DNA of 63,799 nt, counting the filler, from Atractiella rhizophila (Eukaryota), in NCBI GenBank assembly GCA_021432655.1. It is 48 parts of 48 records of this genome, joined end to end, with 100 filler letters (N's around TTAATTAATTAA, not from the genome) between each part and the next. Parts side by side here need not be neighbours in the genome. Positions count along the whole stretch, not along the records: positions 53,565 to 54,767 come from MU273086.1; 47 more parts are not named here. One strand, 5' to 3'. Under the pieces are notes generated by a model. That model saw nothing but the letters and a program-made list of their open reading frames with translations, was not told the DNA's origin and did no database searches. The translations under genes were made by a program, and so were the position numbers. Shown piece after piece: positions 8,300 to 61,331 of the stretch. The stretch's first letter is position 1. Each line of letters opens with the position of its first letter.

Positions 8300-9492
8300 G
8301 GTAAGGGAAGGATGAATGAAACAATTAGCGCAGATGAGGGATACTGTAATTGCAAAGCTGTTACCTCTTGTACAAGCATTCCTGTGCACAAGGCCTTAAA
8401 TCAGCTCCACCAGCTGGACACTAGTTGTAGCTAGATCTAGTTGAAATGCTGAAACGATCTGAAAGGATGATGCGGAAGCTTTGTCAGCTTCGTCTGCAGG
8501 TGGACTTCCGCCTGAGGGAAAATGGCAACCGCACGTCTTTCCGTTACCGAAGATGGTCGAGGTTCAACGTGTTTGCTCACGGAATAGATAGACTCTTGCT
8601 CGACTTGCAAACGATAGACACGACAACAAGCAGTGTGCTTTCGATCTGGCAATCACCAAAGGTCTGACTTTTCACTGGCAAGGGAGGTCAGATGGGATGC
8701 CGTATGAAATGAAATAATTAGATGGTAGAACTGGAGGCAAGAGGATGAATGTGCTTGCGAATTGGCAGGTGGATTTGACATGGACAGGAGGATGCGTTTC
8801 AACGAAGCGTTCGCTCCAGGGGGACATTTGAGCAGAACGCAAAGAATGCGGAGGCGCAGCTGTTTGCCCAAACGAAAGTGCAAACGAAGGTGCTACAGCG
8901 AGAGCTCTCAATGATTTTACAGGGGACAGATTGGTATCGACTTCATCCATTTGATCCCCAACGACATGCAAGACGACACACGCAGAAGGGCAAGTTTCCT
9001 CATGTCACAGCATAGAATGGAGAGAACAACTGAGCGTCTCTAGGATCCTGCTTGGGTCGTTCTGGTTGATTAAATGGGGCATTACTCTTCCATGATGACA
9101 GCGCAGAAAATTCTGCATACTACGGAGTAAAACCACCCACAGCATCATTCACCGAAAGAGCAAGCAAATGTATTTCCCAATCTCTGTACCTAGCGTAACG
9201 AATATACAAATGGTTCACGCACCTTGGCCACTCCGGCTGCTCTTTCCGTTTACAGTCCAAATGCAGCTTCTGTTCATCAGGGACTTACTACAGTCTATTT
9301 ATCCACAAGCTTTTAGCATCTGGGCAATGGTTGACTTCGGAAGATTAACGTGGCAATCTTTAAGCCACTGTAAACAGACACAAACAAACCAATTTTGTGG
9401 TATATATAGATGGTTCTGCAGTATATTTTACACGATGCACCATTCTGCGTTCTTGGCTCAGTGGTAGACGACTCGGAAGCCGTTCGCCAGTC
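8300..9492 (+). repeat. 1193-bp segment apparently identical to 57456-58648
   Basis: Identical ORF translations at a constant offset of 49156, and the same 3' contig end. Confidence 0.95.
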
Positions 9493-12088: not shown

Positions 12089-12203
12089 TGTGTCAGAGTT
12101 TGGCACCTTTTTAAGCTGCATTCGTGCCACTGTCATTTGTGGCTCTAGTTTTCTTTCCCCTTTGCCGTTTCCCTCATTTTGCCGAGTTCCTTAAGGTATA
12201 AAA
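12089..12203 (+). mobile_element. 5' part of an LTR-like repeat (family C), shared with 40234-40327
   Basis: TGTGTCAGAGTTTGGCACC...CATTTTGC is near-identical in two contigs with different left flanks. It starts with TG and runs to TATAAAA. A diverged relative lies at about 39376-39553. Confidence 0.65.
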
Positions 12204-17273: not shown

Positions 17274-19053
17274 ACTGAAACAAAGCTTTATCTTGGTTCC
17301 TTGTTTCTATATGCTTTGAACATGTTCATAACCCTGTCATCTAGTCTATATAAATATACAGATACCGGAACAACTCACTTGCACAGCCTTGCCCACCAAG
17401 AAAGTATGCATTTGCCGCTGCAGGCCTCAAGTCACTCTCCGTCCAAAAGGCTTTCGTCACAATCACAATTCTTAATAAAGGCAGGGGCTGAGGTGAGGGA
17501 TCAAGGGTGAATCGGGGAACTACATGTGGTTACCATTGGATACCTCTTTGCATGTATAATGATTTCCTGGTAGTGAGAGTAAGAGTGAATGGAGTGGCCA
17601 CAAGAGNNNNNNNNNNNNNNNNNNNNNNNNNNNNNNNNNNNNNNNNNNNNTTAATTAATTAANNNNNNNNNNNNNNNNNNNNNNNNNNNNNNNNNNNNNN
17701 NNNNNNAAGGGTGCACTTTCAATCTTAGTTGAACGGCGGTCAGTTCAGCAATGACTCCAACCCAGTCCATCCTTGAAATGTCCCTTTGATTCGGCGCATT
17801 TATCAAACAATTTGATCCTCAGAATAGGCCTTCATCCAGCGGATGCATTAAGAATGATAGTTGTCATCCGGACTTGTTCATGAGAATGGCCGTTCAAATT
17901 GAGGGGTAGTTTCTCATCCACCGAAATGGCCTTATCCATCAGAAATGACCGATCATTTGATCCAACGAATTTCTTCGAATGGCCTAAGTCACAGTTGTCA
18001 ATATTCGTGCGTCTCGTGTGCGACGTGAGAGAAGTTGGCCTTTGAACGCTCCGCTTCCAAGCAGCCTTCTTACTCAACCTCATGCAATTCCACGAGTTTT
18101 GTGAGAGGTCTCACACGTCGTGACAACGTTTGTTACGAGGACTTCTCGCATGCTCTCTTCTGGCACACGGACACCTTACTGGTCATCATAAATACCGACT
18201 TTATCCCTTCTCACACTTTTTCACCGCTGGGCAATCATCAGACAAAGGGTCCTTCGCGACCCGTGACAAATTCCTCCCCATTAATCCCTACAAAAAATTT
18301 CTGATTTTTTAGAGAATATATGTATGCTTCTTCCCCTTGACCAGGTTAACAAGGGTACAGGCTGTCCTGTAAGTTCTCAAGAAAACCGCACAAATCAAAG
18401 TCCCAAAGGCGAAGAAACCAAAAGTGGATACGTGTAATGGCCACTCGCTTTCACCTACGGCAGCTTCCCACGACACGACTGCGTCTTCCAAATACGATGC
18501 CAATCATGGCGATGTCAAGAATCACGTTAGCGGAAAGGCAGTAGCACGTAGTCTGCAAGTTGACGAAGGGGGTCTAGGTCGAAATCGAAGCCCGAATGCA
18601 CTTTGGTATCAGCGCCAGCAATTTGCTCGACCCAAGGAATAGAGCATCTCCCTCCAGATGACGTCCGTCTAACCGCCGATATTAAGCGAGGTGAATTTTT
18701 GACTGGTCCGCCAAAGCGCCTCCTCTCGCCTCAGCCCCCTCTCCCCACCGGTAGTTATTTGTCGGTCTTGAAATTCTCTAATTCTTTTGCGTGCCCATAT
18801 TAAAGGCGGTACTTAAGTATTTGTCATCTACTCGCTGAGATTACGAAACAACATATTCGCATGACCTCCACTCGGATGGCGTTCTGCATCATTTTCATCC
18901 TTGTCTCCGGCGGAAAGTGCGTAAATCCCTTTCTCGATGGATGTTGTGAAAGGNNNNNNNNNNNNNNNNNNNNNNNNNNNNNNNNNNNNNNNNNNNNTTA
19001 ATTAATTAANNNNNNNNNNNNNNNNNNNNNNNNNNNNNNNNNNNNNNNNNNNN

Positions 19054-20300
19054 TGTGTCTCTCGTCGCCCTCACAGCACAGAACTCAATGCTGGCTATTC
19101 TGCTGCACTTGGTAAGTGTGCTTGCTTGCTCGCAGCGACACCTAACATTAGCCCTGCAGTCACGCTCACTTCCAGAATCTCAAGCCTATTCTCCATCATC
19201 CGCCGTGCTTCTCAACGAGATCTTGAAGGGCCTTATATCACTATCTGTAGCGGCGAGGAACTCGTTCGAGTCTCCCTTGGGGAAGGAGAAGCAATCGTCC
19301 CCTACACGTAAAGGGGGAGGCGCAGAGGCCAGGAAAATACTTACATTCGGAAGTTCTTTAGATGAGAAAGAGAGAAGGAAAGGAAGGGAATCTTGGGGCG
19401 AACCTTTGCATAGAAGGGTCTTGAAGCGGTGGGAAGTGGGACGGTGGGACGAGAAGATCTGCCGTTTGAGAGCTGAGATCCTCAGGTGAGTAACCACCTA
19501 CGTCTCTCATCTTGGGTGGCTCAAAGCAATGCCAACGAAGTCAAGACTGCTGGAAACTAGGCGTGCCAGCTATATTATATGTCATACAAAATGTGCGTAG
19601 TATTTTTGGTTCGACTTTCGCTCATAGGTGGCTATAGAATGCATGTGATCATCTATACAGCATTTATGTGCGGCTCATGTTGATATTTTAGCTTCAGTTT
19701 GTTGCGGCTTCAAATCTGGATGTTGCAACTTTCCAGGTAACATACCAACTCAAAGTGTGCCTCACTTGTCGTATCATTTAAAGCCAGAACTAATCTCTGG
19801 CGCAAGATTTTAACCACGGCTCTGTGTTCCGTCTTAATGCTCAAAAAGCAACTGTCGCCCACCAAATGGATATCCCTTTTCTTCCTTTCTATCGGGGTAG
19901 CCATAGTTCAACTTGCCTCCGTCTCCTCCGCCCCAGCAAGCTCCCAACACCAGATGAATCCTCTCATAGGATTCTCTGCCGTTCTCCTCGCCTGTTTTAC
20001 GTCAGGACTAGCGGGCGTATACTTCGAGAAGGTTCTGAAGGGCTCGAAAGTCGACTTGTGGGTTCGGAACGTTCAGCTATCTCTCTTCTCCCTCCTTCCA
20101 GCTATCACGCCGGCCCTTTTGGAGCTGGGTAGCCCAACTCGCCAACCGTTGTTCAAAAACTTTGGCTTTTCAGCCTGGAGCGTGGTTATTTGCCAGGTTC
20201 TGGGAGGACTAATCACCGCTCTCGTCATCAAATACGCCGACAACATCCTGAAAGGTTTTGCAACATCTCTCAGCATCGTCCTGTCCTTCATAGCTGGCGC
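19054..20300 (+). CDS. Golgi nucleotide-sugar (UDP-galactose-type, SLC35A) transporter, partial
   Basis: SSAVLLNEILKG, VPAILYVIQN, ATFQVTYQLK|ILTTA, SGLAGVYFEKVLK, WVRNVQLS and VIKYADNILKGFATS. Confidence 0.95.
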
Positions 20301-21746
20301 NNNNNNNNNNNNNNNNNNNNNNNNNNNNNNNNNNNNNNNNNNNNTTAATTAATTAANNNNNNNNNNNNNNNNNNNNNNNNNNNNNNNNNNNNNNNNNNNN
20401 CTTCTTCCTTCTTTTCCTCATTCCATTCATGCTTTCTTCTGAGAACTCTTCTCTTCTTTCGAAGGAAGATTTGGCCATGTTTGTGGCCTCGGACACGCGG
20501 CGCCGGACATAGACCAGTTTCCCCACAGCACAAAACTGGGCAAACTGGTCGCCCCCGGGGGTTTGCGCAAGCGGCTGGAGGCCGCAAGCAAAAAAATGGC
20601 AAAAAAATGGTTTTGCGCTTCAATTTTAAGAAAATTTGCAGGTCAAAACTGATAGGCCAGTTTTATCGCCGACCAACTCCGACCCCTTGGGCGACGAGTC
20701 TGGTGGATGAGCCATTTTACTGATCTGGGGACATTGTGGGATGACAAGACTAGAATGCAATATTGACGACATCAATAGAGAGATGGGTTATGGAAATGGG
20801 CAACCACAGACTTGATATCTTATGACATTTGAAGCTTGCCTCATTTTTGCATTTGAGGTCTTTGTTTGGGTGAATGCAAGTGGTTACGTCGGCATGCCTC
20901 AAAAGCTGTGATACCCTCTTCCAATCGTTTTAGTATCGGTGCGGTGAGCAGATCGTATCATACGAAACATGCAAGTAGCATTCTGTCCTCTAATACAGAA
21001 CGTGTCTTTACATCAAGTTTCTAAGACCAAACAAGAAAAATTCAAATCCTAATGAGAATTGTTATTGTTGATTGATCTCAACGTGGCTCTGCGAAGCTGA
21101 TGTAGATGACATCTCCAAAAGTCAACATCACTTCCCCTCGCAAAAAAAAATGTGACAGAACAAGTTGCTTAATTGTGAGGGAAGGGACTCTGACTCTGAC
21201 ATCGTGTTGGTTAAAGGAAGGAAGGATAGGTGGGAAATCAATGAAACCGAGAATCAACAAGCACCAAAAAAAGTCAAGCTTCCCAGGCCAATCCGAAATG
21301 GCATGGTGCGAGGTTAATGCGTTAAAGTCAATCGAGTTCATAACCATGGATGAGTTCTTGTGGGGAACATGTTGGACACTGGTGGACACAGTCAATGGAG
21401 GAGAATCGTGGAAATGGAACCCACCTTCAGTGTCCCACTCTATCTCGACACCTGGTCTCTGACACGCTTCTATGAAAGGTTCAAGCTGTTCCTTCGAAAA
21501 CAAGTCACACCGTCGCTCTACAGAAAGTCTGATCAACCTGAGGTGTTTGAAGCTTCCCTTGCTATCCCTTTCATGCGATCAGAGAGGAGGGTGGGGTTAT
21601 GATTATCGAACCTGACGAGTTCCCTTAACTTTGGAGCATGGGCAATNNNNNNNNNNNNNNNNNNNNNNNNNNNNNNNNNNNNNNNNNNNNTTAATTAATT
21701 AANNNNNNNNNNNNNNNNNNNNNNNNNNNNNNNNNNNNNNNNNNNN

Positions 21747-22670
21747 CTCCATCCCGTACAATATCCTCTACCTTCGTTTTATCGAGGATCTCCAGTTCAA
21801 CATTGCCGCTGTTCTCTCTCCCGGAAAGAAAGGACAAAAGTCCACGTTGAAGATTCAAGTTCTCTACTAGTGTGGCCATTGGTTCATTCCCAGAATTAAA
21901 TTCGATGAGAGCGTCGGTAACCCCGTCTGATACCTGAGAAACAATTGGTTAGACCTTCGCGCACGCTTTTTGGAAGCAGAAAACGACTGTGCGCGAATAA
22001 ACCGAATAGATATTTCTTTCAATGGAACATTCTTCATCATATCATGCCAAATGTATGGCTGCTGTTGGGGGTACATCTACCTTAAAGAATGACAGGAGCC
22101 ACTAGACATGGTAAGGAATGCAAAGGCTTGGTCCTTGGTCCTCAAACGAATCATGAAAGAATCAAAAACAGAAATGACAGAAGACAAGAAATTTGAAGAA
22201 AGGAAGAACATACCACCATATCCTTCATCGGCCACGCCCTCTCTCTCCGCACATGATCCCACCCCCCAAACCCCTCCAAAAAAGCCTTCGAGTCCGCCGT
22301 AATACTGCTCACTCGATTCGAATACTCGCCGACTCCCAACCTACTAGGATTGGGGAAAGAACGAATGTGCTCAAAATCCGCGCCGTCGAGGAGAGTGATT
22401 TTCCTAACGTATGAAGAGGTGATGGCCGGGTTGGCCACTAAAGCCCCATATCAGACATCCCGTTCCTTAGGTATCAAAGGGGGGTGGAAGGCGAGAGAAA
22501 TACGAACCCAGAGCAGAAGCCAGTGAAAGGCCAGCCGGACCCCCACCCACGATCACTATGTCATGATTTTCGGGTGTGGTAGCTGCAGTTGCTATCCCAC
22601 GCACACGAAGGCGCCCTGAGCGAAGAAGGAGAGGGAGACAGCGTGGACTGGAGAGGAGACGAGGTTGCAT
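21747..22670 (-). CDS. COQ6: Ubiquinone biosynthesis FAD monooxygenase Coq6, 5' part
   Basis: Mitochondrial-type leader, DIVIVGGGPAGLSLA, YSNRVSSIT and MATLVENLNLQRGLL. The second intron is 21934-22213. Confidence 0.93.
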
Positions 22671-23089
22671 AGTTTGGGGTATCACGTGATTAGAATACTC
22701 AAAGTGTTTACCTTTGAAAATGCTGTTCGATCATCCTGGATCAGGCTCTCGCACAAGGATAGGGATATTACATATAAAAACAAATGACGTTTTCACTATG
22801 GAACATTTTACTGATGTACTATACAAGTTGCCTTGGCGTTAATTGTGTCACCCGAAAATCGAAGTACATTCATTTCCTGCCCAAAACAACCAACGTCAAG
22901 CAGATCGACTCCATGGCTCCAATTACAATAAACAGCAACGGCCAACTCACCTAAATTTGTCTCATTCCTCCATTGTGCTCGCCCACGTCNNNNNNNNNNN
23001 NNNNNNNNNNNNNNNNNNNNNNNNNNNNNNNNNTTAATTAATTAANNNNNNNNNNNNNNNNNNNNNNNNNNNNNNNNNNNNNNNNNNNN

Positions 23090-36449: not shown

Positions 36450-37676
36450 CGAGTGAACCAGAGAGCTCATGCTCTCACACCCCCCCTCACTCGGTGCCCC
36501 AAGAAACCAGCACGAGAAAACTCCGAAAGTAAAGTAGAACAATGGTGAAGTATTAATGAGAAGTAAACACCATGTAATGAAAGTAAACGAAAGACCAATA
36601 CAACCGGATAGCAAAAAATGTCAATACGAAAAGGTAATGAACCAGAACAGTAATGAAATTTAATAAATCCGACAGCACAAATGAGCGTGAATATCTATGT
36701 ATGATGTATGTCAAACCATTCAGGAATCCAGTAATCCTAAGTGAGAGCATAATTTCCAGTGTTGCAAGTGCGATATGCCCTTCGTCATCACATCCGCTAT
36801 CATCTCCTGTGTTGGTATCCATGTCAGTACCACCTCACCTTTACTGACCCTTTCGCGGGTAAAATGGTAGTGAACGTCAACATGTTTCGTTCTGCTGTGG
36901 TTAGAAGGGTGTTTGGCCAAAGTGAGGGCTCCTTGGTTGTCGCCTTTGATCGTCGTAGGTGCATTCTGAGGGAAACCTAGCTCAGTCAGCAACGCCCGTA
37001 ACCAAATAGCCTCCCTGGCTGCCGATGATAGTGCTATGTATTCTGCTTCCATAGATGAGATCGCTACGGTCGGTTGCATCTTGGATATCCAAGATATCGC
37101 AGATCTCCCCAGTCTGAACACAATCCCTGAGATCGATCTCCTGGAATCAACATCAGACGCATGGTCAGAATCAGAAAAGCCTTCTATTGAAGTGGAGCCT
37201 GTACTGTCCCAAATCAGTCTAAAATGCAAAGTCGCAGCAAGATATCTGAAGATCCTCTGCACACATGCCCAATGTCGACGACCAGGATTCGAGTTGAATC
37301 GAGCTGCACGATTGACCGCGAACAGTATGTCCGGTCTGGTGTTTACTGCCGCATATATCAGTGCCCCAACTGCCTCTCTGTACGGTTTCTTCTGCATGTA
37401 CTCACGTTCTTCATCTGAATCGGGTGCCCACTCTTTCGATACCTTCTCATCCACATCGCAGGGAGTCTTGACGTGACTGCAATCAGTCATGCGAAAACGC
37501 TCAAGACACTTCTTGATGTAACTCTCCTGATCTAAAGCTACAATGCTGTTAGTCTCGTCCCAAACTATCCTCATCCCCAAGAAGTTACCAACGGCAGACG
37601 TGGTGATCCTGAACTTTGACCGAAGTAAATCGAACAATGCGTCAATCAAGTTGCGGGACGAAGCAGCAACCAATCC
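36450..37676 (-). mobile_element. Ty1/Copia 3' end: intact RT C-terminus plus RNase H (stop 36720), PPT (36480-36492) and start of the 3' LTR (36479 leftward)
   Basis: PYREAVGAL, TRPDI, GFSDSD, SSMEAEY, DNQGA, RTKHVDVHYHF and ADVMTK. GAGTGAGGGGGGG directly precedes TGTGAGAGC on the minus strand. Confidence 0.97.
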
Positions 37677-40233: not shown

Positions 40234-40327
40234 TGTGTCAGAGTTTGGCACCGTTTTAAGCTGCATTCGTGCCACTGTCATTTGTGGCTCTAGTTTTCTT
40301 TCCCCTTTGCCGTTTCCCTCATTTTGC
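40234..40327 (+). mobile_element. 5' part of family C LTR-like repeat
   Basis: Near-identical to the first ~94 bp of 12089-12203. Confidence 0.65.
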
Positions 40328-43068: not shown

Positions 43069-44286
43069 TGAGAGATATCAAAATCTGAGGCAGAGTACTC
43101 GATGCACATGTCCTGAGTGCCCTTGAGATAGCGCATGAGGTGTTTGGCAGCTTCCCAGTGCCTCTTGCCAGGATTGGAGAGGAATTTTCCGAGGACAGAG
43201 ACAGTGTGGGCAATGTCAGGGCGTGTAGCAACTGCAAGTTACATGAGAGAGCCCACAACATGGCTGTAGGGAATGGTTCGCATCTCTTCTTCGTCTTCCT
43301 TGGTCTGAGGACAGTCTTGCTTCGATAAACTGTGTGTTGGATTAGGTGTTATATTTTGTGGTCTTGTGTTGTGTGGTCAGCCACCTTTGTTGTGTTTGCT
43401 TCACTTCGGAGTTTTAGCCCCCTGGGGGGCAGTTTAGGCGGTCATCATTTTTGACCACCAATCTCTGTCCCCTAGCTCCATCCAGCATCAGATTCTCTCA
43501 GTGGGGGTGTTACTGGCCGCTCTGGGGCTGCCTGTGGCATGTCTGGTGCTTTAACCCTCTCTTGCTCCGCTTCCTGATCGTCTCCTTCATCCCTCGATCC
43601 TTCAAAACGATTTGGGGATTCCACCCTGAGTCTCTCACGTTCTCCTTTATCCTCCAAAGTGTCCTCCTCCTCCTTATCTTCACCAAAATCCAAAAGGACG
43701 GCAGGAGCATCTCTCTTTTCTTCTCCCACCTGATCCTGACGTTCTTTCCATCGTCCAGTGGCCCCTGAGGCGGTTCCAACACGTTTTCCTTCCTCCTGAC
43801 TTTGCAGAGCATCTCCCTCTCATCAAATTTCACAATATCTCTGGTGTAGACCTTCTTAGACACTGGATCCCAGAATCCCAGCCTTTAGCGCTGGTAGAGT
43901 AACCTATAAAGGCACATCTGCATGTATGGGATGCCAGACTGTGCCTTCTTTCGTCCTTCTGAACTTGGACATACGCAGTAGAGCCTAGGACTCTGAAACA
44001 CGAAATATCGACCAGTTGCCCTGTCAATTTCGTGTGGGGAATGGAGTGATTGATGGAGGAAGAGGGGGATCTGTTCCTGATGTGAACCACAGCCGAAGCA
44101 AGATGAGCCAGAGGAATAGTGGCAAACCAGATTCCTCCAGTATCGCCACCATCCCCTCCTGAATCGTCCTATTCGCTCTCTCTGCTCTCCCATTTTGATG
44201 AGGAGAGTTCCTAATCGTTTGCTCACGCTGGATGCCACAATTTCGAAGATATTCATCAAAATCTGTTGAGGAGTAGGCGCCTTCTT
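43069..44286 (-). mobile_element. Rearranged Copia remnant: integrase/SH3 region (43501-44286) and RT C-terminus (43069-43330) separated by an inverted LTR
   Basis: TPHQNGRAERANRTIQE, HIRNRSP, FRVLGSTAYV and CAFIGYS on one side; IPYSHVVGSLM*..RPDIA..SNPGKRHWEAAKHLMRYLKGT on the other. Confidence 0.92.
43335..43500 (+). mobile_element. Family B LTR (166 bp, intron-less form)
   Basis: TGTTGGA...CTCTCA, homologous to 60722-60886(-) and 60450-60594(+). Confidence 0.8.
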
Positions 44287-44393: not shown

Positions 44394-44579
44394 TGACAGA
44401 ATCATACACCTCCTTTCGCCACTTGCGTCCTTGCATGTTTAGTTTCCTTCGAGCACTTTCCGGAACTGTGGCCTATCTTTTGCCACAGGGATCCCTCTGT
44501 TATAAAAGCTTGGAAACCTGCAAGTGTGAGACTTATACTCAGTGTTCTCTTGCACTTCACAGCGCTCATACATTTGTCA
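44394..44579 (+). mobile_element. Family A solo LTR (186 bp, intron-less form)
   Basis: TGACA...TGTCA termini, flanks GGTAG/TGTAG (4 of 5 TSD match), TATAAAA at 44501. Homologous to 54420-54660. Confidence 0.85.
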
Positions 44580-45493: not shown

Positions 45494-45602
45494 TGAGGGC
45501 GACAGGGTGCGAGGCTGCGAGGTGCGAGACCAACCAATAAGGATGTGATTCTAGCTATGTAAAGATGAAATACATTACCTGCGAGGTGCGAGACCAACCA
45601 AT
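45494..45602 (-). mobile_element. 3' part of a family-A-related LTR-like repeat with a 64-nt GT-AG insert (45515-45578)
   Basis: Minus strand reads ATTGGTTGGTCTCGCACCTCGCAG|GTAATGT...ATTGGTTGGTCTCGCACCTCGCAG|CCTC. The insert start resembles the family A insert. Confidence 0.65.
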
Positions 45603-49850: not shown

Positions 49851-50638
49851 ATGGCTCCGAAAGAGCAGCGGCGAGGTCAGAGACAACGGACTTTGAAGAA
49901 CATGTCAAAGTGGAATAACGAGGATGGAACGTCATTAAGCGAGAAGGAGAGGAAGAAGGACTCGGAGGAAGAGTAAGCCTTTGACTGCAATCAGTTGTGG
50001 GTTACACTGACCGGCGACTGAAGGCTCTTCGGAATCCCTGGATATGAGTTTATCAAGGTTTTGGCATCCACTAGCAAAACAGCACCTCAGCACGCAAACG
50101 CAGTGCGTCTTTCCCACTTGGTTTTTCAGTTAAAGACTTCCGGACTGAAAACTGATCGTTCATGCAGAAGAACTCAGCCTTGTACACGAAAGCGGTTGCG
50201 CTCCTTGACCAGCTTGACTCTCAAGCTGACGACAACGATGCGCTCCTTGACCAGCTTGACTCTCAAGCTGACGACAACGATGACCCCTTCCATGCCGCAT
50301 TCTCTGGATGGCGCCCTTCCTCCCCCGTCGATGTTGGATATCAAGACGGGCTCAAAGCATTCACAACTCTATGGAAGCGGCTTCAGCAAGTTTCTTCCGT
50401 TCCCGAAGTCACTCTACGAGCACGCAAAGCATATCTTTGTGCTGCTGCAGAGCACATCCACGCTGTACTCCTTCCCGAAGGTCTCGTTGATTTGATGGGA
50501 CCGGATCAACTCTATATCCCACAGCAAGAAGAAGAGGAGGGCGAAGATGTGACGACCCTAGACCGGAGGAGATTGATGCGGTTGAAATTGCAGATGTTAC
50601 CTCTGAAGGTAGACAGTTCAAAAACAAAGAAAAAATGA
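49851..50638 (+). CDS. Hypothetical multi-exon protein with a 14-aa tandem duplication
   Basis: TATAAAA about 50 nt upstream, ATG at 49851, donors GTAAGC and GTGCGT, and a long exon from ~50168. The 3' end is uncertain. Confidence 0.45.
50198..50281 (+). repeat. Perfect 42-bp tandem duplication (ALLDQLDSQADDND x2)
   Basis: Read directly from the sequence. Confidence 0.95.
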
Positions 50639-53464: not shown

Positions 53465-54419
53465 NNNNNNNNNNNNNNNNNNNNNNNNNNNNNNNNNNNN
53501 NNNNNNNNTTAATTAATTAANNNNNNNNNNNNNNNNNNNNNNNNNNNNNNNNNNNNNNNNNNNNCGGTTACCCTTCGCCTCTGTGTAGACCTAAATAAAC
53601 AAGCACAGCCATACGAATCATTCAGATCTCGAATGGCCGATAAACAGCGGAGAACAAAGCTCTGGAGTCCGCCGCGGTCGGCGAACCACCTTAAAAGCCA
53701 ACAACTTCCTGTTTAAGGACGTGCGTTCTATTACGTACGGGCGCCAAGGAGGTCTCAGCACATGGACGATGCAAGATGAGGGACCAAACGGCGCCAATGG
53801 CGCCAGCCTGCCATGCAATAGCGATAGCACTCACATGGAGAACATGGGCACAGACAACAGCGCGACTTCTGGTGACTACGCTACGGCGCCTCTTCTAACG
53901 ACGATAACCTAACGCTCTGCCAAAAGACCCAAGTATTGCACCGTCTGGCATTTGGTCCAACAGTCAACCCGGAGTAACCCTGCCTTTCTCTTTCCTTCCT
54001 CCCCTCGCCGAGATTTGATGAGCCCATCGGATGCTGCGAGCTGTCAAAAATCGGATCTCGTGGCATGGCCAATGTTCAAAATGAGGTAAAATGACGTTTA
54101 AAAGCACCTTGCCATCCCCAAACACTCTGTAAGACCTGTCGGATCCGGCAAGGTGAAGAAACAAAATATGGAGTGCCTGAATATCCTCCAACCATCGATG
54201 GTGTGGGTAAGGATGTGGAAAAAAAAATCGACTTAGAAATTACCCTCAGGGGTTAATGGATTAGGGTTAACGTGAGTCATGCCGTCACATGGGTTGAAAT
54301 TCACTTGCTTTTTTGCAGTGAGAGAGAAAGAAGTGATATGAAAGTTTCAACGTGGGTTTGAACTTTCGGCTGACGAAACATCCCTTGTTTTCGCTGGAAA
54401 TTATGTTAGATGGGTTGTC

Positions 54420-54660
54420 TGATAGAATCGTGCGCCTCCTCCTCTCGCTGCGCGTTTAGTTTCCTTCGAGCACTTTCTGAAACTGTGGCCAACCTTTTGC
54501 CACAGGGATCTCTCTGTTATAAAAGCTTGTAAACCTGCAAGTGCGAGACTTATACTCATCGTTATCTCGCACTTCACAGGTAATGTAGTTTTCCCTTACA
54601 TACTGAATGCAACTTATACTCATTGTTATCTCGCACTTTGCAGCGCTAATACATTTGTCA
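54420..54660 (+). mobile_element. Family A solo LTR (241 bp) with perfect 5-bp TSD and a 64-nt GT-AG insert (54580-54643)
   Basis: TTGTC|TGATAG...TTTGTCA|TTGTC, with TATAAAA at 54518. Confidence 0.92.
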
Positions 54661-54867
54661 TTGTCGACAACGGGTGAAAACCATCGCTAACCCGCTCTCG
54701 CCACTAAGTCAAACAAAAACCCGGACTGCAGGGAATGCTCAGGGAGTGGAGAGTGTAACAAGTTAGGNNNNNNNNNNNNNNNNNNNNNNNNNNNNNNNNN
54801 NNNNNNNNNNNTTAATTAATTAANNNNNNNNNNNNNNNNNNNNNNNNNNNNNNNNNNNNNNNNNNNN

Positions 54868-57455: not shown

Positions 57456-58648
57456 GGTAAGGGAAGGATGAATGAAACAATTAGCGCAGATGAGGGATAC
57501 TGTAATTGCAAAGCTGTTACCTCTTGTACAAGCATTCCTGTGCACAAGGCCTTAAATCAGCTCCACCAGCTGGACACTAGTTGTAGCTAGATCTAGTTGA
57601 AATGCTGAAACGATCTGAAAGGATGATGCGGAAGCTTTGTCAGCTTCGTCTGCAGGTGGACTTCCGCCTGAGGGAAAATGGCAACCGCACGTCTTTCCGT
57701 TACCGAAGATGGTCGAGGTTCAACGTGTTTGCTCACGGAATAGATAGACTCTTGCTCGACTTGCAAACGATAGACACGACAACAAGCAGTGTGCTTTCGA
57801 TCTGGCAATCACCAAAGGTCTGACTTTTCACTGGCAAGGGAGGTCAGATGGGATGCCGTATGAAATGAAATAATTAGATGGTAGAACTGGAGGCAAGAGG
57901 ATGAATGTGCTTGCGAATTGGCAGGTGGATTTGACATGGACAGGAGGATGCGTTTCAACGAAGCGTTCGCTCCAGGGGGACATTTGAGCAGAACGCAAAG
58001 AATGCGGAGGCGCAGCTGTTTGCCCAAACGAAAGTGCAAACGAAGGTGCTACAGCGAGAGCTCTCAATGATTTTACAGGGGACAGATTGGTATCGACTTC
58101 ATCCATTTGATCCCCAACGACATGCAAGACGACACACGCAGAAGGGCAAGTTTCCTCATGTCACAGCATAGAATGGAGAGAACAACTGAGCGTCTCTAGG
58201 ATCCTGCTTGGGTCGTTCTGGTTGATTAAATGGGGCATTACTCTTCCATGATGACAGCGCAGAAAATTCTGCATACTACGGAGTAAAACCACCCACAGCA
58301 TCATTCACCGAAAGAGCAAGCAAATGTATTTCCCAATCTCTGTACCTAGCGTAACGAATATACAAATGGTTCACGCACCTTGGCCACTCCGGCTGCTCTT
58401 TCCGTTTACAGTCCAAATGCAGCTTCTGTTCATCAGGGACTTACTACAGTCTATTTATCCACAAGCTTTTAGCATCTGGGCAATGGTTGACTTCGGAAGA
58501 TTAACGTGGCAATCTTTAAGCCACTGTAAACAGACACAAACAAACCAATTTTGTGGTATATATAGATGGTTCTGCAGTATATTTTACACGATGCACCATT
58601 CTGCGTTCTTGGCTCAGTGGTAGACGACTCGGAAGCCGTTCGCCAGTC
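57456..58648 (+). repeat. Whole contig duplicates 8300-9492
   Basis: Identical ORF translations and the same 3' end. Confidence 0.95.
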
Positions 58649-60121
58649 NNNNNNNNNNNNNNNNNNNNNNNNNNNNNNNNNNNNNNNNNNNNTTAATTAA
58701 TTAANNNNNNNNNNNNNNNNNNNNNNNNNNNNNNNNNNNNNNNNNNNNCATCGTCCGCCCTCCAAAGACTGCACTTCGCCTGCATCTACATTTCTGAAGC
58801 CCTCAAATGAGAGAAGTCCAAAGGGAAAAATCCCTGTGGTTGCTCTCTCTTCCTTCAACAACAGCTTTGAACGTGTCGGACCTTCCAAGAGTACAACTGT
58901 TGAAGTGATACGCCATGGCACGTGCTGAGATGAGAGCAACGAGCTACGGACCAACTGACTGAAGAGAGGAGGACGGATGGAAATTCAGCGGCATCCGTGT
59001 CGCTCCCTTCAGCCTGGGGGTCGTGCAGGGAAAAGCGAGTATAGTGTGGGAGATCAAAGCGCAATTGAGAAAAGTGGAGCTTCAAGCCGGATGAGATAGT
59101 TGTCTCTGCTGGAGGTAGAGGATTGCTTGGGGTATGCCTATGGAACTTGAAGAACCGGATGTCAGGCTTGCCCCTACGCATTACCGAAATACACCATTTG
59201 AAGTCACGTGACCTACTTTCACCATGTCATAGGATCACGTGCCTGCCCATCGCCGCTTTGCTCACGTTCGTGCTGATCGCCGCCTTCCCCTATCTCACAC
59301 GAATTGCCGCTCAGCAAACCTTACACATTTCGCCGGTCTGCACCGTCTCCATCATTGCTTTATTGTCCTTTCTCACTTGTACTGCTCAGTATGTCTTATT
59401 TCCGAGTATTCCCTTTATTGCTTTCCTGATCTAGCTATCTTACATGTTTCAAGAAACGTATGTTACAGTTTATGGCAGTGCTTTTACATATGTATATATA
59501 CATCGAGATGTAGTGGTGGTGACCTCAGAGTATTCTCTTAGGTTTACCTCCACTACAGACACATCGCCCATCGGCGACCGCACATAGTGTTTGCCCTAAC
59601 ACTGGACTGGAGTCATGGTACGCTTCAATTCCTTATTCTGTAGCTGCAGCTGCGACATTCAACCAATAGCAGTGACTGCTGCCTCATAGCGACCACACTG
59701 CACCGACTCCGGCTAGCATAATTGAAGGCCATGATTATTACTGCTTCTTTGGGCACAAAACCCGTCTCGAAATAATGTGTGACATGTTGGTTTACTCACA
59801 AAGGAGGTGTAACAAGCGTAGTAGTTGACAACTCAAGGGTCGTCAATGCGATTGAACACTTCTGGCGGTTCGTATTCCAATCCTCCTGCTATCATAAATA
59901 CAATCACCTGTTGATCATAGATTTAGACGATCATCAAATCNNNNNNNNNNNNNNNNNNNNNNNNNNNNNNNNNNNNNNNNNNNNTTAATTAATTAANNNN
60001 NNNNNNNNNNNNNNNNNNNNNNNNNNNNNNNNNNNNNNNNTGTTGAACCTTGGGTATAAAGGGTTAATCTGCACTGTTGGGAATGACTGGTCACTTTAGT
60101 GCAATTGGCTAAATCCAGCAG

Positions 60122-60984
60122 ATTTTGGTGAAGATGAAGAGGAGGAGGACATTTTGAAAGGTCAGGGAGAGCGGGAGAGACTCAGGGTGGAGTCCCCAGA
60201 TCGTTTTGAAGGATTAAGGGACGAAGGAGAAAATCAGGAAGCGGAGCAAGAGAGGGAAGAAGCACCAGACAGGCCACAGGCTGCTCCAGAGCGGCCAGTA
60301 ACACCCCCACCACGTCTTGTTCCTCAGAGAGACCCTTGGACTGGACTAATGATGGTGGGAAGACAGACAGAATCGCCAGATCCTCTCCAAATGACGCCTC
60401 CTCAAGCTATCCCTGTCCCTGCGGCTCCATCCAGCATCAGATTCTCTCAGTTTTAGCCCCCTAGGGGGCAGTTTAGGCGGTCATCATCTTTGACCACCAA
60501 TCTCTGTCCCCTAGGTATGTGTTTCCCTATCAATGTTATCATCTTTGACCACCAATCTCTGTCCCCTAGCTCCATCCAGCATCAGATTCTCTCAATACTT
60601 CCTTCTCCCTGGTCTCTGCTGACTTGTTGAAGACCCTATGCTGCTTCCCAGCTGGCATGGCTTGCAAATAGGGTCTGGATCATCCTCTAGGTCCAAAATC
60701 GTCCCATTCACAAGTTCCTTCTGAGAGGAATACACGCTGGATGGAGCTAGGGGACAGGAGTTGGTGGTCAAAGATGATGACCACCAAGACTGCCCCCTAG
60801 GGAGAAAAACTATGAAGTGAGTAAACACAGCAAAGGTGGCTGACCACACTAAGACAACACCATGAAATTTAACAGCTGATCCAACACTCCCACCTGGGCA
60901 GCCGCCTCTTGAAGCTCCCACCAAATCCAATAATCGTCGAAGAAAGCTCCCACCGAATATAAACGGCGTCGAATGGTATGACAC
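60122..60984. mobile_element. Mosaic of family B Copia pieces: post-integrase spacer (+, 60122-60420), LTR 3' parts (+, 60424-60449 and 60450-60594), GAG-pre-integrase (-, 60595-60721), full LTR (-, 60722-60886) with PPT-like tract
   Basis: ERERLRVESP..PQAAPERPVTPP is shared with 43503-43690(-). KELVNG..DPICKPCQLG is present. CAGGTGGGAG precedes TGTTGGA on the minus strand. Confidence 0.8.
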
Positions 60985-61331
60985 AAAGAAAACATGTTAA
61001 TTGATTGTCTAAATCCACTAGAGAGATCCTCGTACCGCTTAGAGCGGCGTCTTATAACCCCCAGAAGGAGGACAGAGCTTTATTGCGCCCCATAACTGCC
61101 TCATACACTTGGGTAGGGGCGCAGACCCATCATTTCTCGCAATTTTGAGACTCCAGCAACTGGTAAAGCCTTGGTGAGGAGGTCTGCAGGCATAGACTCG
61201 CCAGGACAGAAGACTGGGGCGATGAGTCCAGNNNNNNNNNNNNNNNNNNNNNNNNNNNNNNNNNNNNNNNNNNNNTTAATTAATTAANNNNNNNNNNNNN
61301 NNNNNNNNNNNNNNNNNNNNNNNNNNNNNNN

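Follow-up and report, generated by a model that had tools for sequence, protein, structure and literature searches.

Reverse transcription of spliced RNA erases introns and, given this erasure, how retroelements keep introns is a real question. Retroviral LTRs contain splice signals, with the donor located in R (HTLV-1-type and foamy viruses) or a small intron located in R-U5 (SIV and HIV-2), and reverse transcriptase is known from retroviral vector work to switch templates and delete sequence between direct repeats. The solo LTR described here, from a draft fungal assembly, carries a GT..AG intron-like segment whose 3' half (block A2) repeats the sequence immediately before the segment (block A1), and a sister LTR is without exactly this segment. 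Retroviral R/U5 splicing is alike in that splice sites or a small intron fall in R/U5, the genome RNA is unspliced there, and an effect on translation of the leader has been proposed; the retroviral introns belong to animal viruses, however, and have neither a copy of R within them nor an intron-less LTR lineage. Deletion between direct repeats is alike in its geometry, a pair of 32-nt repeats set 64 nt apart where the element is reverse-transcribed, with one unit lost, but would be expected to give spread breakpoints or an A2-type end, whereas only the A1-type end was seen among the joints listed.

Arabidopsis Ty1/copia retrotransposons produce a spliced subgenomic gag RNA (PMC5580714). As would hold here, the RNA of an LTR element is a spliceosome substrate and unspliced RNA stays the copying template; there, however, the intron reportedly lies in the coding body and not in the LTR, with no R repeat in it. 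Transposon transcripts of Cryptococcus contain poorly spliced introns (SCANR; PMC5851062), and weak introns in the transposon transcripts of a basidiomycete would fit the off-consensus 5' site reported below, although Cryptococcus belongs to another subphylum and its introns are not described as lying in LTRs.

Loss of introns mediated by reverse transcriptase, and gain of introns by tandem duplication or by break repair with flanking repeats, are also described (PMC3443670). Shared with these processes are the occurrence of exact intron-less copies beside intron-bearing ones and an intron 3' end that repeats the end of the upstream exon. Gain by tandem duplication of AGGT differs, since it needs the 5' end of the intron to repeat the start of the downstream exon; this origin was rejected for the segment, in which A2 does repeat A1 but is followed by CGCTAAT, unlike the GTAATGT at the start of the segment. 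Break-repair gain differs in the repeats, which are short in that account and not 24-35 nt. Phrase and term searches of the open-access literature turned up no account of LTR retrotransposons with an intron inside the LTR, or with one repeating the presumed R, and no paper on Atractiella transposons.

The window and the long LTR

The window, meaning the whole stretch of 63,799 bases that was analysed, is not one locus. It comprises 48 draft-assembly contigs of 1183-1278 bp, unplaced and ordered by size, with linkers of the form N44+TTAATTAATTAA+N44 between them, and the long LTR and its sister are on different contigs. Unmerged draft-assembly pieces occur among them: contig 57456-58648 is 100% identical to contig 8300-9492, the contig ends 14830-14907 and 58749-58826 overlap by 78 nt at 100% identity, and the ends 12089-12182 and 40234-40327 overlap at 98.9%. 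The gene fragment at 19741-20298 shares 99% identity with a protein that NCBI lists under Atractiella rhizophila, and a second gene fragment has its nearest proteins in Sporobolomyces and Rhodotorula (60-66%). These matches make the fungus a member of Pucciniomycotina near Atractiella rhizophila, and the premise that the preliminary description took from Cryptococcus is thus misplaced. Part of the stretch is contained in 12 public runs, of which four were aligned as Logan contigs at 85% likeness, with variant rows in the contig alignments called at a 5% threshold. Run X1 is DNA-type, with 0.78 of the words present and 191 contig pieces aligned.

The solo LTR of the preliminary description is borne out by TG..CA termini, a perfect target-site duplication, a TATA box and many dispersed copies, and the coordinates given there for the LTR, the TATA box, A1, the GTAATG start, A2 and the tail all hold (Table 1).

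Table 1. Coordinates of the LTR features and of a second, unrelated repeat, as positions in the window
Feature	Position	Strand	Basis or remark
Left target-site duplication, TTGTC	54415..54419	+	identical to 54661-54665
Solo LTR, long form, family 1, 241 bp, TG..CA	54420..54660	+	sequence; high-copy in X1
TATAAAA, putative TATA box of the promoter, 30 nt ahead of A1	54518..54524	+	presumed function
Block A1, 32 nt with TTCACAG end; all or part of the presumed R	54548..54579	+	R presumed from spacing
64-nt GT..AG intron-like segment, GTAATG...TTTGCAG	54580..54643	+	exactly absent from sister LTR and short-form contigs
Block A2, 3' half of the segment, ends TTTGCAG	54612..54643	+	29/32 match to A1
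17-nt tail up to terminal CA, U5-like	54644..54660	+	sequence
Right target-site duplication, TTGTC	54661..54665	+	sequence
Sister solo LTR, short form, 186 bp, separate contig	44394..44579	+	sequence alignment
Family 2 block B1, 24 nt visible, cut by contig end	45579..45602	-	repeat search
Family 2 64-nt GT..AG segment, starts GTAATGTA; last 24 nt (45515-45538) identical to B1	45515..45578	-	repeat search and alignment
Second repeat, 35-nt block	60480-60514		contig 60041-61231; repeat search
Second repeat, 55-nt segment, GTATGT start, ends in 34/35 block copy	60515-60569		contig 60041-61231; repeat search

The termini form short inverted ends, TGATA../..TGTCA in the long LTR and TGACA../..TGTCA in the sister. 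A1 and A2 constitute one of eight spaced direct repeats detected in the 63.8 kb, and their likeness is far beyond chance. The identity of A1 as R is a guess from the 30-nt spacing to the TATA box. No complete element was found in the window, nor a primer-binding site or a polypurine tract, and a search of it found no tRNA genes; one loose end in X2 has a TGG-type motif two letters past the LTR, a motif that is not above chance in the window. On the minus strand at 36723-37676, a 318-aa open frame has a weak match to copia-type reverse transcriptase (RVT_2, E 1.7e-4, below the curated cut-off) and is not linked to the LTR.

Short forms and dispersed copies

Alignment of the two LTRs confirmed the claim that the sister is without exactly the 64 nt at 54580-54643 and retains the TTCACAG end, reading TTCACAG/CGCT (the slash marks the boundary, here and below). 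Elsewhere the sister is 91% identical to the long LTR over 126 nt with a 9-nt indel in U3, and its flanks (GGTAG and TGTAG) match at 4/5 positions. Depth summed over X1 contigs, which is not equal to copy number, is 49,297-67,087 in the LTR core, ~745 in the flank and 18,266-22,676 over the segment, the last being about one third of the core value; the corresponding X2 depths, likewise not equal to copy number, are 19.8-31.6 over the segment and 391-838 in the core. Past the end of the LTR, thirteen X1 contigs run on into flanks that do not resemble one another (agreement 0.42), which shows that the copies are dispersed.

The long form has variants of its own, 2 nt being deleted at 54589 in 4 contigs and at 54592 in 2 contigs; in diverged copies, too, a block end CAG is followed by GT. 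Long copies read TG in A2 where A1 reads CA, with no variant rows at 54575/76 or 54639/40 (X1, 5% threshold). Short forms lose the match at 54579 and resume with the tail in at least three contigs of X1, at least three of X2 and at least one of X6, among the loose ends listed. All short forms among the joints listed keep the A1-type end, with no variant rows at 54575/76 at the 5% threshold, and this end is what exact removal of GT..AG gives. Breakpoints scattered through the 32-nt repeat, which the preliminary description had associated with simple recombination, were not seen among these joints.

Two further contigs concern the flanks. An X1 contig of depth 148 (vs 597) joins 54358 to 54669 and differs by ~10% in the flank (window 54300-54767); it is a diverged paralogue or a second haplotype that lacks both the LTR and 61 nt of the left flank. 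In the soil metatranscriptome X6, a contig spans the left junction of flank and LTR (54305-54436) with one mismatch and one gap, which shows that the fungus or a near relative was present in that soil sample and does not imply transcription.

A second family of the same build

The contig of the sister LTR ends in a second LTR family on the minus strand (45602-45515), which has the same arrangement of block, GT..AG segment and block copy and a tail that differs from the family 1 tail. The junction motif TCTCGCAC..CAG/GTAATGTA occurs at two places only in the window, and none of 100 shuffles gave even one match. The fillers, the parts of the segments that precede the block copy, are alike at 26/31 positions between the families (a score reached by 0/5000 shuffles). 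The family 2 blocks are identical to each other (24/24), whereas they agree with the family 1 blocks at only 24-25 of 30 aligned positions with 3 gaps. The filler is thus more conserved between families than the blocks are, and the length of 64 nt is held despite indels. At the position where family 1 has CA (A1) or TG (A2), family 2 has CG in both blocks. A derivation of CA and TG as two decays of an ancestral CG was considered and is not relied on, one diverged copy reading CT.

The common 64-nt build in diverged families indicates that it predates their split, and since the B blocks are identical yet unlike the A blocks, either one block has been copied over its partner or both have been made anew. 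The two blocks therefore evolve together within a family and not independently. The short sister resembles the long form (91%) far more than family 2 does, and the short form is therefore most simply a derived, exact loss; this comparison, an argument from one truncated family 2 copy, makes the long build the apparent ancestor.

This co-variation bears directly on the reading that takes the route of the preliminary description for the normal cycle of the element, in which the intron of the 5' LTR would always be spliced and strong-stop DNA would land on A2, rebuilding the intron, or on A1, giving the short LTR. Overwriting of A2 predicts blocks that are identical within family 2 and unlike those of family 1, as found; the A1-type end of the short forms and a block start 30 nt past the TATA box agree with it as well. 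The same route, however, predicts that A2 equals A1 in each new copy, the last five letters included, and family 1 keeps TG against CA in a form whose segment has about one third of the X1 depth; in the copy in the window the two blocks differ at 3 of 32 positions, and the RNA-type runs gave two pieces each, with none over the junction. As the normal cycle, this route is the least probable of the readings weighed here. Self-regeneration as a claim is accordingly divided: the blocks do co-vary between families, but the long copies of family 1 retain TG in A2 and CA in A1, and these private differences show that long copies do not usually arise by overwriting of A2. As the main route, strict self-regeneration is improbable; acting occasionally, overwriting of A2 may account for the co-variation of the blocks.

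A related proposal is that A2 is a working copy of R inside an LTR intron, with strong-stop DNA made from spliced RNA landing in the unspliced 3' LTR and rebuilding the intron there; in its wider form, the fungus would build introns in transcribed repeats as a block followed by a GT-filler-block unit ending in AG. This we hold to be doubtful. If true, the segment would be an intron surviving its own removal, long kept in at least two LTR families, and it could keep the pool of spliced messengers apart from that of unspliced genomes.

Splice signals and the proposed leader intron

Five genuine introns were read in two genes of the window by guidance from homologous proteins, with an uncertain 114-nt alignment gap in the sugar-transporter gene excluded. 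They measure 48, ~55, 99 and ~52 nt (sugar-transporter) and 47 nt (UbiA), and the 64 nt of the segment lie within this range of ~47-99 nt, in keeping with the ordinary intron length that had been claimed for it. Protein-guided introns were used in place of guessing from pairs of open frames, which was too noisy, and a strict intron-consensus pattern was of no use (24 matches over the window vs a shuffle mean of 48.6).

The exon-side CAG and positions +1 to +4 of the 5' site of the segment fit the splice consensus, CAG/GTAA being seven letters in agreement with it. Position +5 is T (GTAATG), where all five genuine introns have G, and this counts against an intron. A branch-like CTGAAT resembles the CTGAAG of the genuine 47-nt intron but, at 37-38 nt from the 3' end, is more distant from it than its counterparts in the genuine introns seen; AG is absent from 54589 up to the final CAG. 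The segment includes ATG at 54583 and 54607, and A1 and the tail include none, a distribution which hints that spliced RNA might be the translatable form and unspliced RNA the genome. Runs X4 and X6, both RNA-type, contributed two pieces each, none of which bridges the 54579/54644 junction.

GT..AG falls exactly at the terminal register in 3/8 of the spaced direct repeats of the window, two of them independent, against a chance by our own arithmetic of ~2 in 256 per repeat. GT..AG in any register is not rare in the repeats, and on the plus strand family 2, too, shows one by chance. Four folds revealed no special RNA structure (z = +0.61, +0.97, +1.01, -0.34), and a hairpin of 5-6 bp at the 5' site is common to both families and shows no variation, which makes it uninformative. 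In metagenome scans, a 30-nt pattern from the LTR core gave 0 matches, and the junction pattern gave 2 chance matches that are bacterial-looking and have no repeat behind them.

These signals can be set against a reading without any splicing, in which a strand-transfer or template-switch error near R duplicated the block with its filler and the result is copied as plain LTR, with transcription starting at either block, the two forms being lineages or the products of template jumps, and GT..AG a coincidence. Reverse transcriptases do jump at direct repeats near R. Long copies that breed true with private A1/A2 differences are as this reading expects, a start at A2 as well as A1 would restore the long form without loss of TG, and the departure from consensus at +5 and the lack of special structure in the folds agree with it. 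On the other hand, GT and AG stand exactly at the segment ends in both families, with CAG/GTAATGTA conserved; a minus-strand jump would give A2-type ends or scattered breakpoints, and at the 5% threshold neither was seen; no three-block form is among the joints listed; and the filler (26/31) outlasts the blocks (24-25/30 plus gaps), with the 64-nt length kept despite indels. We consider this reading possible but unlikely. If the segment is unspliced, the small fungal LTR simply carries an ordinary duplication close to R.

That the segment is spliced in one version or another is plausible and, though unproven, on the whole probable. The version we tentatively prefer, at somewhat short of even confidence, makes the segment an old, conserved LTR part, in a small retrotransposon lineage of many copies, that would act as a weak spliceosomal intron in the 5' leader, on the R/U5 side, with unspliced RNA copied and spliced RNA leading to its loss. 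Transcription would begin near A1, and reverse transcription would usually use unspliced RNA, so that long LTRs would breed true and the private differences between A1 and A2 would persist. The spliced RNA, A1 joined to the 17-nt tail, would be free of the two upstream ATGs of the segment and might make a better messenger; if itself reverse-transcribed, it would give an intron-less LTR with the exact deletion and the A1-type end. The spliced product would match the DNA of the short form letter for letter, so the short forms could also be an independent old lineage. The second block would put the same 32 nt beside U5 in both RNA forms, and occasional copying of block onto block at strand transfer might keep the blocks alike within a family, this being the only step at which the route of the preliminary description may act.

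The conserved length and junction in two families, together with the co-evolving blocks, point to a mechanism that links splicing with strand transfer. If confirmed, the LTRs would offer a natural system in which to study how RNA pools are divided between translation and copying, what decides strand transfer where two R-like targets are present, and how introns are kept or born in reverse-transcribed elements.

The build also occurs in a repeat unrelated to the two LTR families. The second repeat of Table 1 has two other copies, at 43361-43526 and, inverted, at 60716-60850, which are without exactly the 55 nt of its segment, and this hints that the build may come from a general genome process not tied to R. 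On such a reading, the genome makes or tolerates insertions, each composed of GT-filler and a block copy ending in AG after the original block, in transcribed repeats, where they would survive by being spliced; the LTR segment would then be an intron that arose from a duplication with filler and reached an LTR by chance. The unrelated repeat has just this construction, and intron gain by duplication or with flanking repeats is a described class (PMC3443670). The likeness of blocks within the LTR families and their divergence between them would be left unexplained, the fillers of the LTR and of the second repeat are not significantly alike (112/5000 shuffles, and 309/5000 with the first six letters fixed), and the sample is one window; we find this slightly more doubtful than a working copy of R within the intron. 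The segment does not qualify as an introner, a mobile intron present at many unrelated host sites, since within the window its filler is limited to the two LTR families.

Two other repeats were noted in passing. At 50197-50280 a 42-nt unit is perfectly duplicated in tandem, without a spacer or a GT..AG register, and perfect direct repeats of 26 nt (60424-60449 and 60569-60594) flank the long copy of the second repeat.
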